Source: Owenia fusiformis (taxonomy: Eukaryota). From it: 64,000 bases of DNA. A program made the translations under genes and the position numbers. This document shows positions 48,401 through 59,721 of the stretch, piece by piece. Within the stretch, counting starts at the first letter, position 1, and the number at the start of each line of letters is the position of its first letter. Where the stretch lies: positions 23,436,001 to 23,500,000 of the forward strand of contig CAIIXF020000001.1 of the NCBI GenBank assembly GCA_903813345.2, given 5' to 3'. Below the pieces are notes generated by a model. That model ran no database searches. It was not told the DNA's origin and was given only the letters and a program-made list of their open reading frames with translations.

Positions 48401-50307
48401 CATGAGTTCCCATTGAACTCCTACTAGATATTCTTAAAGAAGACAATATAATGATACTTTTCTGAAAAAAGCAAGGCAATTGACACATGTCTTCATACTT
48501 TATTTTGTACCAGAAAATAACATGTGCATGCTGGTATAGCAATTTTTTACCAAAATGTGAGACCCTATCTGTTGCAAGACTAACGCCTGGCGTAACCGTC
48601 ACCATGTTATATAGTGTTTTTTAAGTAGCGCAAGGATCCTGCCATGACCGTGGTAATGTTATCGTGAAAGCCTGGTATAACCGCGACAATGCTGTATTAT
48701 ATTGCAATGCCTGCCATGACCGTGACAATGTAATATAGTTCTGCAAGGCTTGGTATGACCGTAACAATGTAATATGGTACTGCAAAGCCTGGCATGACCG
48801 TGACAATGTAGTATAGTATTGCAAGTTCAGGTATGAGAGTGGTACTGTAGAAATTTACGATTAGGACTGCTATAACCGTGACAATGTGTATTGCAAAGCA
48901 TTGCATGACCATGACAATGTATTATGGGATTGCAAAGCCTGGTATGACCGTGACAATGTAATATAGTATTGCAAGGCCAGGTATGAGGGTGGTAATGTAG
49001 AGATTTAGGCTTAGTTCTACTATGACCGTTATAATGTATTGCAATGACTAGTAAATATGTATGATATTATGCCAGGAATATCCTTAACAATTCTAAGTGA
49101 TCCTCATTACAATTAAACAGTTTAATACTATGATCATGGTGTTTAACTACCTTAATCATGTCAAAATCAAAATTACTACTACATTAATATTCACATTCGC
49201 TTATAAACCACAATAAAGGCTACGGTCGCGCCAGGCTTCCACGATAACACTTCCAGGGTCATGACAGGCCTTGCAATAGAATACAGCATTGTCACGGTTA
49301 TACCAGCCTGTCACGGTTATACCAGGCTTACACGATAACACTACCACGGTCATGGCAGGATCCTTGCGCTACTTAAAAAACACTGATTAACATGGTGACG
49401 GTTGTGGCAGGCGTAAGTCTTGCAATAGATAGCATGTGCAAAATGTTAGGCTACTTTCCAGCTGTACCCATAGGCTAAGGGTTAAGTAATAGTAAGCTGT
49501 ATATATAAGAGACAGGTCCACAAGTAAGATTGAAAATTATTCAAATTTTTTTAGTCTTGGCACTAGTTCTCCTTACTGGTATCAAATTTTATTCCAAAAT
49601 TTCTCCAAAATCTTCTTCAAAGTGTTTTTCAAACTTATATCATTGTTTTTTTCAAATCTTTATCTAAAAACTGCATATTATACTGCATATAAAACAACAA
49701 CTATGGAAACCTACAATTGCCTGGCAAGCTGAAACTGATTGTCACTGGTGGAGGTCAGGGAGGTCAGCAGTGACCAATCAGATCACTTGTTTACTAATGA
49801 ACTTGCCAGGCAATTGTAGGTTTTCAGAAATTCTCTCTTTTAGACAGCATTATTCACTCTATATCATCTGACTGAGTTTCAATCTTAGGTAAGAGCTACA
49901 AACTATCAATTTTATATCAACTCCCCATGGCTTTTTGAAAATAATACACTAAATATTGTTGAAATCTCCATCTTAACAAGTGGTCTAAGTCAGAGTTGTT
50001 CACCTGTCTCTTATATATACAGCTTACTATTACTTAACCCTTAGCCTATGGCTGTACCTAAGGCGTTCTAAACTGAATAGATCTATATAAATGTCAAAGG
50101 CAAAGTCAAACTTACAAATATATCAGTCGACTGCGTCGGGTAGAACAATCTGACGAACGTTCCATTCTTATTGGGCTCACTCATCAAGTCTAAACATCCA
50201 ACGGTGAACGGCCCTGTAGGAATTGGCAAATGCTTTCGTTCAATCCTTCTCGAATTCCTATTCGGCTGCTTGAAAAGTCCCATATCGATATCTTCTTTCC
50301 TCCCCAT
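36404..50307 (-). CDS. PAFAH2: Platelet-activating factor acetylhydrolase (PAF-AH II / Lp-PLA2 family), 9 exons, ~433 aa
   Basis: Exons 50307-50116, 44110-43996, 43298-43136, 42333-42165, 40237-40121, 38583-38492, 38019-37819, 37219-37071 and 36507-36404 join in frame. Motifs: LPIPTGPFTVGCLDLM, RLFYP, YPVIVFSHGMGG, AAIEHRDGSAS, catalytic GHSFGG (Ser), LDGW (Asp) and HQSQTDF (His). An MG start and no signal peptide suggest the intracellular type; orthology to PAFAH2 versus PLA2G7 was not tested. Confidence 0.95.
38055..38321. mobile_element. piggyBac-like MITE remnant
   Basis: TTAA-cctcatgactacc ... gggattcaagtgg-TTAA, with subterminal gaaacccagagaa / ttctctggtttc. Confidence 0.45.
38688..39123 (+). 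mobile_element. Intact MITE, 15-bp TIR, 3-bp TTA TSD (PIF/Harbinger-like)
   Basis: tta|cccaaatgcgagtag ... ctactcgcatctggg|tta. Confidence 0.85.
39607..39779. mobile_element. pogo/Tigger-type MITE
   Basis: TA|cagtaaaacctgt...acaagttttactg|TA. Confidence 0.75.
48559..49438. mobile_element. Foldback/MuDR-like element with long TIRs containing 39-bp tandem repeats; TSD CAAAATGT
   Basis: ctatctgttgcaagactaacgcctg...ttaagtagcgcaaggatcctgccatgaccgtggta is mirrored at ~49315-49432. 39-bp units start at 48703, 48742, 48781 and 48820. caaaatgt flanks both sides (48551-48558, 49439-49446). Confidence 0.8.
49469..50050. mobile_element. Young MITE, perfect 49-bp TIR, 8-bp TSD GCTGTACC (P- or hAT-like CA...TG ends)
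   Basis: cataggctaagggttaagtaatagtaagctgtatatataagagacaggt has an exact reverse complement ending at 50050. gctgtacc lies at 49461-49468 and 50051-50058. Confidence 0.92.
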
Positions 50308-50917
50308 ATATATTTAGGTCTAATATCTTACATCATTGTGTTCTTGAGATTCTTAACTATATCCCTGCATCATGTGTAACTCCTTTTGAGCCGTATAAAC
50401 TACATTTTTGACGAGTTTTCAAACTTTTTTCTTTAATTCTGGAACATCATGGCGATGGTTGTCATGGCCAGGCCCAATATAACCCTAATTATGCGCGACC
50501 TTGACCCCGATAACACATTCCATAAAAATGTCGGTATTTCCACGTTAATTATTAACAACCCTCTTACGATAAGTGTTAGTTGTCATTGTTTTGTCATTGA
50601 TCTTTGTCCAACCAAATTGTTTTGATAAAGTATCATTAAAAATGAAACAATAGTTGTACACAAATCAATAAACTCTTTTAATGTTTACATTTTATGTCAA
50701 AGGTCACCCACGTGACATGAAATAAACAACCATCTGTTGCCGATGAGAGCAATTGAAACAGAAGATTGTTGACTTAAAAATCGATCATAATCTTAACAGT
50801 TACACTACAATCATACGTGGCTTTGCCTCGTTGTCTTAAAATTCAAGAACGTTTTAAGTGATAAAAACCAAGCAACGTCAAACAATTGATTGTGCTGTGA
50901 ATTTCTGGATTTATAAA
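50308..50917. promoter_or_regulatory. Putative bidirectional promoter between the PAF-AH and JmjC genes
   Basis: 610 bp separate the divergent start codons. The interval contains cacgtg and locally more CpG. Inferred from gene geometry. Confidence 0.55.
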
Positions 50918-53900
50918 ATGGAGCTTCATTTTTGGATGGTTCTGGTGCAGATTATGACTTTGGAAGTGATTTGGGGGAAAATAGGATTTAAAAAAGACTT
51001 AAATATGAACGTGGAATTCCCACCTACTATAATACGACACAGAAATGAGAATATTCCAGCCGGACATCTTAGACCCCTCGGTAAGATTACATGCAAATAA
51101 ATAAGAATGAACGCGACAGTGATACGTGGATTGCGTCCCAAACTTTCTAGGATTCAATGAACCATGGATGATACATGTATATTCTATTAACTTTTATTCT
51201 TATGTTTTACAAATACGTTTAACTGATCTACAAATTTTCAGGTTATTCTTTCTTTCACTGCGACTAAAAATATTTTACCCGCTAGAAAACCAACTGAAGA
51301 TACATGTAGGCTTACTGTACATGCAAATCTGGTGAAAGTATACCAGGTGAATAAACTCTAGAAACTCCATGGTGTGACAAATTACAGAGGGCTTAGGAAA
51401 GGCGGGGTAAACAAAGACAAAGAGCAAAATTTATTTACTTGCACGCGACTTTCATTTTCTTCATTTTCTTGGAAACATGAACCTGGGGGTCTATTTTGGA
51501 ATTGGGACCTGTCGTAACTTACGATTTTGTCAGCTCAAGTCACTGTTCCTCTTTCAATGAACGGCTGTTTCCAAAGAGTCGTACCAAAATCGGCCATTGT
51601 CAAAAACGCTCGTCTTTTTAATGACTACTGCAAGGGGGTGGAAATATACAGTTCGCAGCTAAATTATATTAGAACAACTACGTGTCTATTTATTCGGATG
51701 TAACCAAATATTATATTTGTTTATGTTACACCATGGACTGTATGATGTAATTATTTGGGAATTATAGATTATGATCAACAGCATACATTTGGATTTAGAT
51801 GATGATCATATTTCTATCGGAAATCACTAATTCAATCTTAACCCTGAACGCAGAGTTTAGTTTTAAACTAATGAAGCTAGCTTTTAAGAAGCTAAGTCAT
51901 CTGATGTAAAGGATGATCTTTCATGTGCAATGTATTTATTTTATCTCGGCCTATGTTTGATGTAAGACGCTTTCATTAAAGAGGGAGCATGGTTTTCGAT
52001 AATTGCGTTTTATGCCTAGGTCCCATTTGCTCCGATTCATTGGCCGGCGCCCGACCGTTGTAGTATTTTGTTCAAAACTGATTTCAACTTGCTTCAAATT
52101 GACCAAACCTTTTTTTAAATCATGTACAAGTTCCCAGGAGTTCACAAGTGACCTCAAATTTAAGATTTGACCTTCAATTTTGAACAAAATGCTCAATCGG
52201 CCGGGCACCGGCTGATGAATTGGGGCAAATGTGACATAGGCTTTGGCTTTGCATGAATAAATCGATCCAAATAATTAAGCGATATTTTGTTTTTACATAT
52301 CCATTGTTATTACAGGCTGGCAAAGAAGACCAGAGGGCAAGATCACAGAAGAAAAAGAAATGTTAAAACCCCAGAAGTTTTATTCTCGTTTTGTAAAGAA
52401 CAAGAAGCCTGTTGTATTTCGTGGAGTCGCTGATGAAGTTCCTGCAATGAAACAATGGGAGAAAGATTCAACCTTAGATAAGAAGTGTGTTTGTACAATA
52501 AATTCTCCTAAACTGCTTTTAAAAGTGACAAAAGTGACAATACCACATTAGGGCCTAGTATGAAATTCATTTTCATAATCTCTCGAATTTTCCTTGATCA
52601 TGACATACATGTAGTTTAGCCCGACACTTGGCCTTATTGTCAAATCAAAAAATCATTTACATTCTCTTTTTAAGGTATGGTAAATTAGATGTTATGGTAA
52701 CAGTAAAAAACTCAATGTTGAAATCGACCGGGCCGATCAAACTCAAACTGAAGAAATTCTTGAGGGAGTACGAATACGAGAACTGGTACTTAGCTACTAC
52801 AACTCCACATGAGATGATGCATGAACTCTTGGTAAGGCATTGTCGCAACCTGATTAGAATACAATGAAATAAAATACAATCACCTATGATCAACTTAGCT
52901 TTAAAGATGTTGATTTAAGAGCAAAAAAAGGCTCCAAAACTTAATAAAATATGTAGTTTGGATGTTCATTTATGTCTGTGGATTATATTTTATACCACAA
53001 ACACTTTATAAATACCTGAAATTTGCAATAAAAGTGCCCAAAAATTGTTGTTTCGAAATTCCCCATTTTTCCTGTATCGCGCTAGTCACGTGACCATTAC
53101 ACGTAGCAGTCAATGTACAGATATTACAGTACATATAATATGTTCAATATGGCAAACATCAGCGATTCTGATTCCCGGGTTCTGGGAAATGACTATATAA
53201 ATCGGCGAGAGGGTGTAATTTGAATGAAGACAATTTAAGGATATGACGGAGAATCAACTAAAAATGTGAGTTCTGGAATGAAGACCCGTTGCCATTGACT
53301 GAAGCGATACTATTATCATACTCAGTTTGAATCTAGACGCGGAAAACAGATTATGAAAACAGGTTTTCTGCAAAGTTATCAAATTTAGAAGATATGGATC
53401 TTGTTTTTGAGTGGCTTAACAAGCATTTAGATACCAGACTTGGCGCTATCTCTTGTCAAATACATGCACTGGACTTGCAGTAAATTGGCCATTGCAAATT
53501 GCAAAATCAGATCGTCAAATTAATCGCTTCGTTTTTAAACCTACGCTTCATATCTTCTTCCAAAACTTTAGGATTCGATAGAGATAAGTTATAACTTGTA
53601 CAGGAAAAAATGGCAGATCCTACCTTAATTTAGAATCGCTGATTTCTCTGGACAAATTCCGAGAAGAAATTGTTCAACATCGCGATCACCCCAGACAACA
53701 TGTCGCGTGCGTGTCACTCTGAACTCACGTGATAAAATACGGCATCTTGATTGGTTACTACTCGTGTTGTCATGACGTGAAAAGCAGTAGTAAACACTGA
53801 ATATGTTAATGAACTGCCATATATGGAACAATTGTCTTTCTGATTGGTTAACTTTACACGCCTCCTAAATGAATATAGTAGTCGTAGTAAATGATTCATT

Positions 53901-56900
53901 GATAACTCTGAAAGTGGGCGTGACCAGCTTCATTTTGACACCAAATTCAAGATGTTTCAAATCAAAATGGCCTCGCAAGACGAGGTTGAAATATCAGTAA
54001 TTTGATACTGATATGGTCTACGATAGATCAAAATTGACTGCCCCGCGTCACATGTCACGTGAGCCTATATTTGTTGAAAAATGAAAGAGATAGTGACACT
54101 TTTTAATCTTAAGTTTATACCAATATTACAAACACATATCTATTTTTTTCATTATATATTTATTTCTTCATAATACATACATTTGTTTTATACTACATTG
54201 ATTTATTTTTGCAAAACCTTTGCTATTAGATCTTTAACTGAATTGAGATAGACATGATCTTTACATGATGAATATATAGCAATGCGTTGTGATACAACAA
54301 ACACTCAACAAATATCTCTGCTAAGGTATCGAAATGACGTCAGTCAAAAAATAAACATTTTTCCAAGAATTTTGACAATTTTACGCTGACGTCATTATGA
54401 CGACTTGGTATAGTGTCTTGACGATGTAATCGTTGTCACTAATAAATAATTTGATACGAAAAATTAAAGATTTTCAGCCTAACCCTTAAAGCTTCTGATC
54501 AAATATCACTCTTTTTAGATATTCTTTTTGAAGAAAGACGTAAATATATATCAGAGACAAACACGTTCGCATTCTTGAGTGGAGTATATCTTTTTGGTAA
54601 CTTTTCCCATATCCCTGACTTTTTTACAATATTAGATTATTCATTTCTTGCGAAAATGTTTTTGAAATGTACGAGTTATAATAAAAGTTGTAGCAAAATG
54701 AAAATTTTGGACGTTTTCTCCCACTTTCACTTTAGTTGCCCAAGTGCCTGCGATGCAGCACCATGAGAAAGAACCTCGTTGAGAGTGAAGTTTGGATGTC
54801 TTCTGGTGGAACAAGTTCTACGCTTCATTACCACGCAGACCATGACATTCATTGTATATTAGATGGGCGCAAAGATTTCATCCTCATCCATCCAAAATAT
54901 AAATCTGATATTACTTTTGTTGAGAAGGTATTGGTCGTCTTTTCCCTTATTAGTGATTGTAGTTTAATCATAGTCAAATTCGTAATCATATTTCAAACAC
55001 AGACTTCTCCTTCGAAAGACTACGGGACATACTTGGGGTGGCTACCTACTTTGGCAACGTACATGTATGTCTTCGTATATAAACCAACTACCTAACGACA
55101 ACTTAGCAATAACACGAATAGTTCCACGCTTTTTACAATTTCTGATTTGTTACTACTTGCGGATTCACGACAGTTTCAGACTACCATGATATCCAGGAGA
55201 AAGTAGTAATTTACGAAGTCAATCGAAAATGGTAGTCTCCCGGGGGAAGTCTCAAATATATGTTCGTATATCAAATATATATTCGTATATCTATATAAAG
55301 GTATTATTATGATCAGTTTTAACTCTATTTTATACTGCAGAGTCCACATTCAGGCTCTGGTCACTCAACGGTAGACGTGGATATGGTAAACGCATTCAAA
55401 GACTCAAAACTTGCTGCGACTCCATGGCACTACACCACACTTCTTGCTGGGGATTGCATCTTCATTCCAGCAGGTTAATCTACGAAAACATCTTCTCCAT
55501 CCTTTTTCCTTCATCTCATATATATGCTGAGAAGCAATAAAGAGTACTTGCTGTATTATGTATTATTTTAGTATAAATAAACTTTCTCCATCATCATAAT
55601 TTTCACGCTGGTTTTTTTGTAATGAAATGAGGCCATGAAAATTCATCATATTTTTATTTCTCTTTTACAGATTACCTACATCAAGTACGCTCTTATGGGC
55701 GAAGCATTTCCTATACAGTTCTGTGGTCCCCCACACCCAAGGTTGACATCAAGGACTGTAACGAAGAAGTCGAAAATAAATTCACTTTGCTTACCGATGC
55801 TTCATTTATGTGGACTTTCGCCGATGGTGACAAGGTATTGTAATATTTTGCAGATTTTATCCGAACAACCGCACTTTATGTGAAGTAGAATAAAATATGT
55901 GCGTTCACAAAATGATGGAAACTGTGGATGCTCGTATGATTCACTTGATCTGGAATATGGAACTGGTATCCATATTCACCCGGGGTCTCCAGCATAGTAA
56001 CAAAGATTATTCCATAATAACATGTTTTCCCTGGGAAAATAACAGGGAATAAAAGTGTTATTTGAAAAATCCCGTATCAGATCCCGTATCAGCCAAAATC
56101 CCGTATCAGATCCCGTATTGGATCCCGTATCAGCAAAAATCCCGTATCAGATCCCGTATCAGAAAAATTGAAAAAAAAATATTATGAAATAAATAGGTTA
56201 TTGATGGTCGTGATGGAATATGGATTTATTCCTTGAGAAAATATGATATTGGCCTCAGAAAATATCATATTGACACTCGGGCTATCGCCCTCGGTCAATA
56301 TGATATTTTCCTTGGCCAATATCATATTTTCCCTCGGAATAAAATCCATATTCCATCCCTCCCATTGAATAACCTCTATTTATTCCATGATGGTGAAATT
56401 CCCTGCAATCTGATTGGTCCACGTGACTTAAATATATTCTGTATTTACACGCACTTTCCTGTGTCAATGACGTCAGCGTTGGGATACGGTCCAGTATCCC
56501 AACGCCCCAGATTTCCATCCAGGATATGACTGTTACTGAAAAAAATCAATGGCGATTACTTTGCACCAACGCATGCTTATCTTTGAATTTTGCTATAAAT
56601 ATCTGATTCAAATATCAGAAACGTATACTGTGATCACCAGAATCAATAATTTTAAGAGGAAAAAACGCAAACAAAAAGCAAACAACAAGGACATAAAGAT
56701 TTTGAAGGAATATCGATGTAAAATACCTCTGAGGTGAGAAGGTTGATCTGTTTCTCCGGCCCCAAGCCAACGGACTTGATTTAGGCGAATTTTATATGGG
56801 TAATCATGGAATAAAAACGTTATTCAATGATTTCTTGTGAAATACAGAAAATATTCTTCCCTTGAACGTCTGTATTTCACTCTGCTAGCGCATCGTGAAA

Positions 56901-57617
56901 TACAACCTTCTCGGGAAGAATATTTTCTGTATTTCACTCGAATCATTGAATAACTTATAATATACGCATACATATAGTGAATTATATTACATATAGCGCC
57001 ATAGAGCTGTTCCAAATTGCGAGTCCAAATTTAAAACATTCTTATCTTATTTTTGCAGTTGTTGTTCAACTCTAGACTAAATCCAGAAAGTACAAGGCAA
57101 CATCTTCTTGGTTTGATGAGGACTGATAGCGAACTGTATTATGATCGCTTTCATCTATTCTACAACGAATCTCTTAGCGAGGTACGTATAACACTCTTAA
57201 AAACCAGAATATTTTTTAGTTTTTAAACCACAAGCGTTATTCTTAATTCAATGAATGGCGTAAATAGGAAAGAGGATTGAGCTTTGACACCCAAGTCTAC
57301 ATGTATTGCATGAAAACAAATTGCAAGAGGCAGTAATGACCAACACCTAAGAAAATCAAAATCAAAGTATCTATCTTAAACTGCGAACTTTACATATCAT
57401 TCCTTGCCCCGTCCGACTTCCAATGTTTTAAAGCTTGCGTTCATTTCAGGTACGAGATGCACCAGATTCATCGGAAGTGTTTAAGAGCCTTGACCCAAAC
57501 AACCAGGGTTTCATAACCAGAGAAGCCGTTGAGAAGTTGGACAACATGCGACTCCAAGAACTAGCAGATGTCCTCAACAGAGCCCATGCCCATGGTCATA
57601 AACACGACGAACTCTAA
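50918..57617 (+). CDS. JmjC/cupin-8 domain protein with signal peptide, degenerate EF-hand and C-terminal HDEL; 8 exons, ~422 aa
   Basis: Exons 50918-51080, 52316-52484, 52675-52831, 54736-54927, 55341-55473, 55671-55834, 57059-57181 and 57450-57617 join in frame. Motifs: GHLRPLG, KPVVFRG, WMSSGGTSSTLHYHAD, CILDGRKDFILI, GDCIFIPADYLHQVRS, DPNNQGFIT and HDEL*. Confidence 0.92.
52901..54237. mobile_element. Probable old non-autonomous DNA transposon (TTAAAG...CTTTAA, Kolobok-like) filling JmjC intron 3
   Basis: ttaaagatgttgatttaagagcaaaaaa versus ttttttgcaaaacctttgctattagatctttaa is only a weak TIR. The interior is CpG/cacgtg-rich. Confidence 0.4.
56069..56162. repeat. atcccgtatcag minisatellite (~7 copies)
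   Basis: Direct repeats of atcccgtatcag with short spacers. Confidence 0.9.
56192..56952. mobile_element. Double-hairpin non-autonomous element (Crypton-like, inferred)
   Basis: Stem-loops at ~56192-56375 (centre cgggctatcgccctcg) and ~56820-56952. The motif gaaattccctgcaatctgattggtc follows the first hairpin. Confidence 0.65.
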
Positions 57618-58662
57618 AGCCCAACAAATACCAAGATGGAACCTCTATAGATATATGTTTGGACACATATTTGAACTAGATCTAAATTAGACTTATTCCT
57701 AGAGGCAGTGATCTGGAATATGAAACCGTTAACCGTTGACGGATATTTCATACGTTATTTGCCCGTTTTTGTACCTAGATTAGTGATGTACCATTTCCGG
57801 GGTACCATTATTGTCAATTCATCTGTATGAACCAGTCGTCAGCAGTTGTATTCGTTATCGTCATTTATTATAATTGTTGTACAGAACAGTTTTCTTCATC
57901 TTTAGCCATCCTTTGTAAGGATACTCCATTTAGGCTTTAGCCAGTAGTGCATGTGGGAAGGGAATCCTTTAATATGTAATATTGTCTAAAATCTCAAAAA
58001 TGTCATTATAGGATGCATATTCTCTCCTATTCGATAACCCTAGGATGAAGAAAAGAACGTTTCCATGAAATCAAACAAGTATGACTATCCCTTGGATCTC
58101 ACAAGCTTTAGATAAAGATAAACTCTGATAAATCAAAATGCGAAAATATATTAATAAATGGAAGGTGGCATTTGTTTCCGATCTTATCATATATTTATAT
58201 TTTGTATTGAGTTGAAGCTGGTGGGAATTTAATCGTTGAGATATTTGTAGATGTGTTTATTTTTGAGATTTCCTCTTTAATTCTTCATGCTTGATTTCCT
58301 TAATCTTTCATTTTGTGAGGGATATTTGTTTTTGAACAATCGGACTTATAGTTATTTAGAATTTATTCTTTAATACTTCTGATTTTACGTTTTAGTCATC
58401 CGAATTTGTCATGCGAACTATGTGATTTAGGAATAAATTATGTATAAGCAAGGGAATCACTCTTGGAGTGTACCTGTATTCACATGTACATGTGGAATTT
58501 TGATTCAGTAAACCTGCCAGATGGCTTTTTCCATCAGGATGCCATAGAAAATTGCTCAGAGTATAAAATAACAGTGAACTCAGAAAAGTAGAACATAAAA
58601 CTCTACAATGAGGATTCGACCTGATATATTTGTTAGAAGTAAGATTAATACATGAATTTGGG

Positions 58663-59721
58663 ATGCAAATTAAGAAATATAAACAATCTATGTATGAGGA
58701 GAGAATCGAGAATGAGAAATCAATAAAGTCCGGTGATGAAGTCGTTGCGAACATCAACATAGACATAGAGGACCGTCCACACAAGGCAACAGAGGGGATA
58801 ATGAAGGAGAATGAGTCGTTGAGGTTGATGACGGGCTTCATGATGTTCACAGGTGGAGGAGTAGCATTCGGATTGCCCGGGGTGTTGTTCACGATACGAA
58901 ATAACAACCCAAACAATATTCTAACGTCCTTAGGTCCCGTTCTCATCTCGATAAGCCTTGTCATGATGGTTGGATCATTTATAGTGTGTACATATGCATT
59001 TGATGACTCTGACGATGATGCCACGGACCGCAAATACAAATCACAATACCGGAAGGCATGCGTTGTGCTATTCTTTGGGGCTCTACTCTGTGTACCAGGG
59101 GGTGTAGCACTTGCTCTGTCCAGACACTATGGATTTAACTCGGAACATGCATTGTCAATAGGCGGCATCATCAGTGCTCAAATAGGCGGTGGTCTACTTG
59201 TATCAGGGTTGATAATGTGTTGTGCTATTCGCGTGCGTAAGAAAATGACGAGGCGTATTGAGGACAAAGCGACCTCAGAAGAAAACCTATCGGGTTCACA
59301 AAGTAAGATGACCATTAACCGTGGTGTTGCACGTTGGTCACCGGTGGATACACCAATGATGGACTCGGACGCAGACGTTTGTGACTGCGCTTATTGCCCT
59401 CGGCACGGCTTGATGCTTACCGGCAGGCAACCAGAAGAAGAGGCAGAGCCCTGGTGTCCATTCAGCTCCAGTTCAGATTCCGATGGACGCGTTGATCCAT
59501 TGATCGAAAGGATGCAATTAAGAGTGATGCAAGGACGGAGTAGAAAATGCCAGAGAGGCAAGAAAATTGGTAAAAAGGGTGCTGGTAGAAAGAATAAACG
59601 GAGACAGCAATTAGATATTGATAGTGGTGATGATATGAATGACTCTGATGATATGGACGATGAGGGCGTTGATGCGTATGATGGAATGGTTCAAATAATT
59701 GGAGAAATCATGCCCATGTAA
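58663..59721 (+). CDS. Intronless membrane protein with 4 predicted TM helices and a basic/acidic C-terminal tail (~352 aa)
   Basis: A ~1-kb open frame in AT-rich DNA. Hydrophobic segments: FMMFTGGGVAFGLPGVLFTI, LGPVLISISLVMMVGSFIVC, ACVVLFFGALLCVPGGVALAL and IGGIISAQIGGGLLVSGLIMCCAI. The start is at 58663 or 58690. Confidence 0.8.
   Translation: MQIKKYKQSMYEERIENEKSIKSGDEVVANINIDIEDRPHKATEGIMKENESLRLMTGFMMFTGGGVAFGLPGVLFTIRNNNPNNILTSLGPVLISISLVMMVGSFIVCTYAFDDSDDDATDRKYKSQYRKACVVLFFGALLCVPGGVALALSRHYGFNSEHALSIGGIISAQIGGGLLVSGLIMCCAIRVRKKMTRRIEDKATSEENLSGSQSKMTINRGVARWSPVDTPMMDSDADVCDCAYCPRHGLMLTGRQPEEEAEPWCPFSSSSDSDGRVDPLIERMQLRVMQGRSRKCQRGKKIGKKGAGRKNKRRQQLDIDSGDDMNDSDDMDDEGVDAYDGMVQIIGEIMPM

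Follow-up and report, generated by a model that had tools for sequence, protein, structure and literature searches.

Gene structure and metal-site motif

The window analysed here, a stretch of 64,000 nucleotides (G000:C1:23436001-23500000) within the 500-Mb animal genome of Owenia fusiformis, carries on its + strand an intact eight-exon gene encoding 422 amino acids, and the fourth exon of this gene holds an H-x-H motif at the metal site of a JmjC domain. For the gene model, GT-AG boundaries were sought near eight candidate exons and of the four open solutions the simplest was taken. The exons and the residues discussed below are located as follows (window positions; 2OG, 2-oxoglutarate).

50918..51080, + strand: exon 1, start codon, hydrophobic signal-peptide-like N-terminus and start of GHLRPLG (open GT-AG model)
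52316..52484, + strand: exon 2, start of the Cupin_8/JmjC domain (PF13621 positions 1-37, E 2.5e-5)
52675..52831, + strand: exon 3, with Tyr149 (52787-52789), equivalent of JMJD5 Tyr272, a 2OG C5 ligand
54736..54927, + strand: exon 4, double-stranded beta-helix strands I-IV with HxH (PF13621 E 1.6e-7, over the cut-off)
54793-54795, + strand: Trp183, matching JMJD5 Trp310
54817-54819, + strand: Ser191, matching JMJD5 Ser318
54826..54834, + strand: His194-Tyr-His196, first metal ligand and the His in place of the Asp ligand (JMJD5 His321, Asp323)
54844..54846, + strand: Asp200, at the site of JMJD5 Asn327 (2OG C1 ligand), variable among His-type orthologues
54850..54855, + strand: His202 (54850-54852) and Cys203, both older than the Asp-to-His replacement; His202 takes the place of JMJD5 Leu329, a residue that lines 2OG
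54871..54873, + strand: Lys209, equivalent of JMJD5 Lys336, a 2OG C5 ligand
55341..55473, + strand: exon 5, insert and strand VI, with Cys266 (55455-55457)
55671..55834, + strand: exon 6, distal His275 (55679-55681), Val277 and Cys301
57059..57181, + strand: exon 7, helical C-terminal domain (helices in the orthologue model) with one N-glycosylation sequon (residue 362)
57450..57617, + strand: exon 8, EF-hand-like loop, C-terminal HDEL and stop

A contig of 1,685 nt from run X15 (contig 9; the kind of run is not on record) joins four listed pieces across introns, including exon 1 to exon 2, and its unlisted parts match the lengths of exon 3 and exons 5-7. Since the contig spans introns with matching exon lengths, splicing very probably follows this model. 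Among the differences listed between contig and gene, all five exonic ones are silent. In the spliced model GHLRPLG begins in exon 1 and is completed across the first intron, and the N-terminus reaches its hydropathy maximum, the sole measure applied to it, of 2.13 at residues 8-18. The EF-hand-like loop of exon 8 scored below the Pfam cut-off (EF-hand_7, E 0.0056, 17.4 bits versus a cut-off of 30).

The + frame from 54736 reads SSTLHYHADHDIHCILDGRK at 54814-54873, with the codons of His194 at 54826-54828 and of His196 at 54832-54834. Thus, instead of the canonical JmjC triad HxD/E...H the Owenia protein carries HxH...H. A first-pass annotation of this DNA had proposed a His at the carboxylate-ligand position and a distal His retained in YLHQVRS, and both observations were confirmed: the motif is read in frame and conserved in 37/37 rows (see below), and the distal residue is His275, encoded at 55679-55681. 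The interval given for the site (54796-54870) started six codons early and ended one codon short.

The motif stretch aligns without gaps to JMJD7 (HKD) and JMJD5 (HQD); in these alignments His194 coincides with the first ligand, and the Asp (Asp323 in JMJD5) is matched by His196. The same H-x-H was found in all 16 homologues of the first search. It is very improbable that the motif reflects a sequencing error, a private allele or a register shift that makes H-A-D the true HxD motif, which it formally fits. A shift would require His196 on the first ligand, but the ungapped alignments put His194 there, and orthologues with the aspartate read HYDADH, so that the ligand Asp is present besides the Asp of 'HAD' that follows it. 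Over 54675-54912, an independent DNA contig from run X1 showed four differences, all listed and none in the motif, and the two exonic ones were silent; it agrees with the assembly at the His codon, and the His is shared by 37/37 rows. Neither a private variant nor a register shift, the two cases that the first-pass annotation had named as fatal to its proposal, is therefore borne out. Asp198 could serve as second-shell helper residue.

Family membership and spread of the His-type site

In 2010, Iyer et al. described a 'secreted JMJD5-like family' of animals that vertebrates, arthropods and nematodes have lost. Conserved cysteines and a GHxxxhG motif mark its members, and their predicted activity is hydroxylation of cell-surface proteins (PMC2938197, excerpt). 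Judged by its sequence, the Owenia protein is a member of this family: it shares the motif, the cysteines, the signal-like N-terminus, the invertebrate range and JMJD5 as nearest solved relative. GHxxxhG (GHLRPLG in Owenia) was found in 59/60 named rows, and Cys170, 203, 266 and 301 are present in 62, 62, 63 and 63 of 63 named rows, respectively. As judged from sequence and hydropathy, 55/60 named rows have a hydrophobic N-terminus and 59/60 a KDEL-like end (HDEL in Owenia). Whereas the family was predicted to act at the cell surface, this C-terminal signal points to residence in the ER, and the Owenia protein is probably ER-resident. Proteins of this type that are annotated 'JMJD5-like' or 'lysine-specific demethylase 8-like' carry such an ER tag. 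In the excerpted family description HxH is listed for JMJD8 only, and most members examined here carry HxD (122/168 rows).

JMJD5 is the closest JmjC match, and the named homologues are all invertebrates outside arthropods and nematodes. The JmjC double-stranded beta-helix is indicated by PF13621 in the Owenia protein itself; evidence on the fold comes from P0001, the Lingula orthologue (49% identical to the Owenia protein), whose AlphaFold2 model (pLDDT 73.6, pTM 0.76) matched JMJD5 best (Foldseek E 1.5e-15; VIA Z 21.2, rmsd 2.8, 218 aligned). No thiol dioxygenase appeared among the 50 matches listed in a wide fold search with this model, which is not evidence of difference. The arginyl C-3 hydroxylase JMJD5/KDM8 (PDB 6f4n; PMC5862942) is the best match in fold and sequence. 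Its His321, His400, Tyr272, Ser318, Lys336, Trp310 and Val402 have the same residues in the Owenia protein, but Asp323 is replaced by His, Asn327 by Asp (variable), Leu329 by His and Trp414 by Leu. Identity is about 20%, and JMJD5 is intracellular whereas the Owenia protein is predicted to be secretory.

For the distribution of the two site types (Asp-type, His-type) we scored 63 rows with organism names, several of them from the same species; the phylum labels are our own. The orthologue alignment that the first-pass annotation had recommended revealed H-x-H...H (His194, His196, His275) in all 37 named non-bdelloid spiralian rows, which cover six phyla (molluscs, annelids, a brachiopod, nemerteans, a flatworm, monogonont rotifers); Macrostomum carries the His type. 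Among named non-spiralian rows (echinoderms, hemichordates, lancelets, tunicates, the placozoan Trichoplax, the sponge Oscarella), Asp was found in 18/18 scorable rows, one row being gapped, and the ctenophore Mnemiopsis (P0050) also has Asp. No named cnidarian or ecdysozoan row was among the homologues found, so the replacement can be dated only to between the deuterostome split and the spiralian radiation. Asp-type and His-type orthologues are 40% identical overall and 56% over the active-site exon. When a hemichordate Asp-type protein was searched against the Owenia genome, the HxH gene was the best match (E 1.8e-19), which fits replacement in the orthologue rather than in a duplicate. An exact-pattern search, which can miss a copy, found no Asp-type copy of the subfamily in this genome.

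A wider alignment, built from the first hits, the window protein and the best 150 of 3,978 representatives, comprised 168 rows, of which 122 are HxD and 32 HxH. From 89 hand-chosen rows, with near-duplicates and fragments dropped and nine motif columns left out, a quick LG+G4 tree was calculated. In the free tree, two changes are needed for the 42 His rows, which fall on one branch (SH-aLRT 97) together with Asp rows, some from tunicates and some unnamed; one of the latter, P0031, could be a reversal. When the His rows were constrained to one clade, the likelihood was 28.65 higher than the free search had found (p-AU 0.815). These data permit a single origin of the replacement, which they do not prove.

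Bdelloid rotifers differ. In bdelloid-type rows (P0028, P0251 and the P0254-P0281 set) His194 is lost in 6/7 named rows and in 21/24 when unnamed ones are included; the second metal His is lost in three rows. The gene and its ER tag are kept, and so are Tyr, Ser and Lys of the pocket (7/7 named rows each), His196 (7/7), His202 (7/7) and His275 (6/7). The bdelloid-type protein is likely a lineage-specific pseudoenzyme with a decayed site, and since the pocket outlasts His194 in these rows, a kept pocket alone is no proof of catalysis.

An ER JmjC protein with HxH...H had already been described, which the first-pass annotation overlooked, as it did the family description of 2010. JMJD8 is listed with HxH in a table of PMC2938197 (excerpt) and resides in the ER lumen, where its localisers suspected inactivity because of the HxH (PMC5684140, excerpt). 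Demethylation with release of succinate and formaldehyde was later reported for this protein, and a double His-to-Ala mutant was dead (PMC9820096, excerpt); this is a single report, and its substrate is cytosolic although JMJD8 is an ER protein. In July 2022, before that report, a review called JMJD8 function undefined (PMC10083964), and a review of 2024 repeats the activity claim and asks for more work (PMC11241480).

The Owenia protein shares with JMJD8 the His for the Asp ligand and, as predicted from its sequence, a signal peptide and the ER lumen, and the same HxH...H in the same predicted compartment might suggest that it is simply the JMJD8 orthologue, its HxH thus being already known. 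We regard this as next to impossible. Using a motif-based pattern, we located a separate JMJD8-like exon, also HxH, on another Owenia contig (L020:1458-1598, - strand; G000:C9:13898742). Lingula carries both genes, and its two proteins are 25% identical over 110 residues. The nearest relatives of the Owenia protein are Asp-type secreted JMJD5-like proteins. JMJD8 is also shorter (about 260-285 versus 420-460 amino acids in the Owenia type), its strand II is one residue shorter and the Lingula JMJD8 has no KDEL-bearing helical tail. JMJD8-like rows keep the basic C5 ligand (Lys), lack the Asn and read HxH in 60/60 cases, with no Asp-type row seen, but our search words favoured HxH rows. Since JMJD8 is a separate gene in the same genomes, the spiralian HxH is a second, independent case.

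The 2OG pocket and the chemistry of an all-histidine site

In JMJD5 the metal is bound by His321, Asp323 and His400; 2OG is held at C1 by Asn327 and at C5 by Lys336, Tyr272 and Ser318, and its methylenes are lined by Trp310, Leu329 and Val402 (PMC5862942, excerpt). The C5 pocket residues are present in Owenia (Lys209, Tyr149, Ser191), and among the 37 named His-type rows we found Tyr in 36, Ser in 36, Lys or Arg in 37, Trp in 37 and Val in 37. The Lys site is Lys in 22 and Arg in 15 of these rows, the Arg occurring mostly in gastropods and Octopus (P0003, P0005, P0018, other gastropod rows, P0233). In contrast, the C1-binding Asn is found in 19/37 named His-type but 18/18 Asp-type rows (59/97 versus 40/44 when unnamed subfamily rows, which are related to one another, are included). 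The site varies (N, D, T, L, Q, Y, I) in His-type rows and only after the replacement; Owenia has Asp200 here, as do 5/37 His-type rows.

The first-pass annotation correctly called the surroundings His-rich, but Asp198, His199 and His202 are common to Asp-type orthologues (His199 and His202 in 17/18 each). These two histidines are therefore older than the replacement and no part of the active-site change.

For the protein as a whole, we give about an even chance to a three-histidine Fe(II)/2OG oxygenase acting in the ER. According to this reading, the Asp ligand of an ER-located secreted-family JmjC protein would have been replaced by His in the ancestor of the sampled spiralians and then held fixed. 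Fe(II) would be bound through His194, His196 and His275, and 2OG would be held by the kept Tyr149/Ser191/Lys209/Trp183/Val277 pocket. The three-histidine face would be neutral and the grip on the C1 carboxylate loosened. In the manner of JMJD5-type enzymes it would hydroxylate a protein or glycoprotein of the secretory pathway, and it would work as JMJD8 is reported to, without being JMJD8. Several observations are consistent with such an oxygenase: the invariance of the three His (37/37) together with the kept pocket (36-37/37), JMJD5 as closest fold of the Lingula model, the KDEL-like ends, and the spliced contig with its silent exonic differences. The Asp in all scorable non-spiralian rows and in the ctenophore, and the hemichordate Asp-type protein that matches the HxH gene best, also fit, but the free quick tree needs two changes and mixes His with Asp rows.

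Part of what speaks against an oxygenase also argues for a pseudoenzyme, in which the replacement ended catalysis and the protein was kept as ER binding partner, chaperone or metal/2OG sensor, with the His serving metal binding or the fold. We consider this rather unlikely, though well worth keeping in mind. Asp-to-His exchange inactivates collagen prolyl 4-hydroxylase (D414H, an engineered three-histidine site; PMC2767507, excerpt), and JMJD8 was suspected of inactivity for the same reason. The Asn site relaxed after the replacement, and bdelloid-type rows retain the gene, the ER tag and the Tyr/Ser/Lys pocket despite the loss of His194. On the other hand, the three His and five pocket residues persist in 36-37/37 rows from six phyla, and dead JmjC domains usually keep fewer site residues than these rows do. 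Moreover, loss of His194 was seen in bdelloid-type rows only, and the HxH protein JMJD8 is reported to be active with 2OG-coupled turnover, although that rests on the single report with a cytosolic substrate.

The first-pass annotation had pointed to the 2OG-independent chemistry of three-histidine cupins such as cysteine dioxygenase and had named altered catalysis, a different metal or a pseudoenzyme as outcomes. With changed chemistry, the three-histidine face would bind another metal, or a substrate would occupy the 2OG site, and oxidation would proceed without 2OG as in thiol dioxygenases. This is unlikely in our view. Cysteine dioxygenase and other three-histidine cupins do carry their His in HxH...H order on a beta-helix, as in the Owenia sequence, and it is in enzymes working without 2OG that three-histidine sites are typically found (PMC2767507, excerpt). 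The Asn site varies only after the replacement, and His196, His202 and His275 persist in named bdelloids (7, 7 and 6 of 7) after His194 is lost. The cupin motif is G(X5)HxH(X3)E(X6)G, which the Owenia sequence fits with Asp for Glu, and in a variant His202, or Asp200 in Owenia, would possibly act as fourth ligand, comparable with 3-His-1-Glu cupins. Asp200 was dropped as a general 3-His-1-carboxylate ligand since Asp occurs in just 5/37 rows, and His202 predates the replacement and has a JMJD5 equivalent that lines 2OG, not the metal. Thiol dioxygenases lack a 2OG pocket, but the JMJD5-type pocket, including the C5 carboxylate site that is 2OG-shaped in JMJD5, is kept here in 36-37/37 rows, the Owenia protein retains the JmjC extensions, and the closest folds are 2OG enzymes. 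Because of the JMJD5-like fold and the kept 2OG-holding residues, the cysteine dioxygenase idea is not supported so far as leading explanation, while the conserved His in place of the carboxylate ligand stands.

One evolutionary version of changed chemistry appears doubtful: at the spiralian base an ER 2OG hydroxylase would have moved to a different reaction or metal, a three- or four-histidine site (His194, His196, His275, possibly His202) oxidising a carboxylate-bearing substrate in the old 2OG pocket without 2OG. If true, and counting JMJD8, ER-luminal JmjC proteins would have moved to an all-histidine site twice independently, which would suggest that the luminal environment selects for such sites; a hitherto unrecognised modification of secreted proteins, specific to spiralians, would also be indicated.

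It is not settled whether an iron site built of histidines alone can sustain the work of a 2OG-dependent oxygenase. The engineered prolyl hydroxylase is dead (PMC2767507, excerpt) whereas human JMJD8, the natural example in the literature searched, has one activity report (PMC9820096, excerpt). JMJD8 has no Asp-type row here for comparison, and the subfamily of the Owenia protein supplies this comparison as a natural set: deuterostomes, placozoans, sponges and a ctenophore have Asp, spiralians have His, and in bdelloid rotifers the site has decayed. Expression of one orthologue of each type makes the question directly testable. A literature search, mostly outside subscription journals, did not find the HxH of the spiralian secreted JMJD5-like subfamily, but the supplementary alignments of PMC2938197 may show it. 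As far as this search shows, what is new is another HxH lineage that arose independently, spans phyla and has living orthologues of the Asp type; HxH in an ER JmjC protein is partly anticipated by JMJD8.

Neighbouring sequences and paralogues

On the - strand, 50083-50313 is an exon that matches platelet-activating factor acetylhydrolase isoform II (PF03403, E 3.2e-9) and lies head to head with the HxH gene, at a distance of about 600 bases upstream of the start codon; the two genes possibly share a promoter. Downstream, at 58612-59721 (+ strand), an open frame runs uninterrupted for 369 codons; its product would have several hydrophobic stretches and a tail that is acidic, and weak TMEM100 (E 0.00038) and PIRT matches were both below the cut-off. 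Intronic interspersed repeats, with contig depth thousands of times the exon level, occupy 52000-52250, 52870-54310 and 56000-56960, and a short tandem run near 56070-56165 lies within them. Inspection by eye also showed degenerate tandem units at 48600-49400, each about 50-60 bases long and some of them inverted.

Elsewhere in the Owenia genome, two secreted-family paralogues carry canonical HxD (L002 on G000:C10; L003/L019 on G000:C11). HxD is also shown by four other JmjC genes among the Owenia loci, which we take to be JMJD5-like, JMJD7-like, FIH-like and one more. A Cupin_8 protein at L006:771-2020 is unlike the other JmjC genes seen; it has an HFD motif and is preceded by a long extension at the N-terminus.
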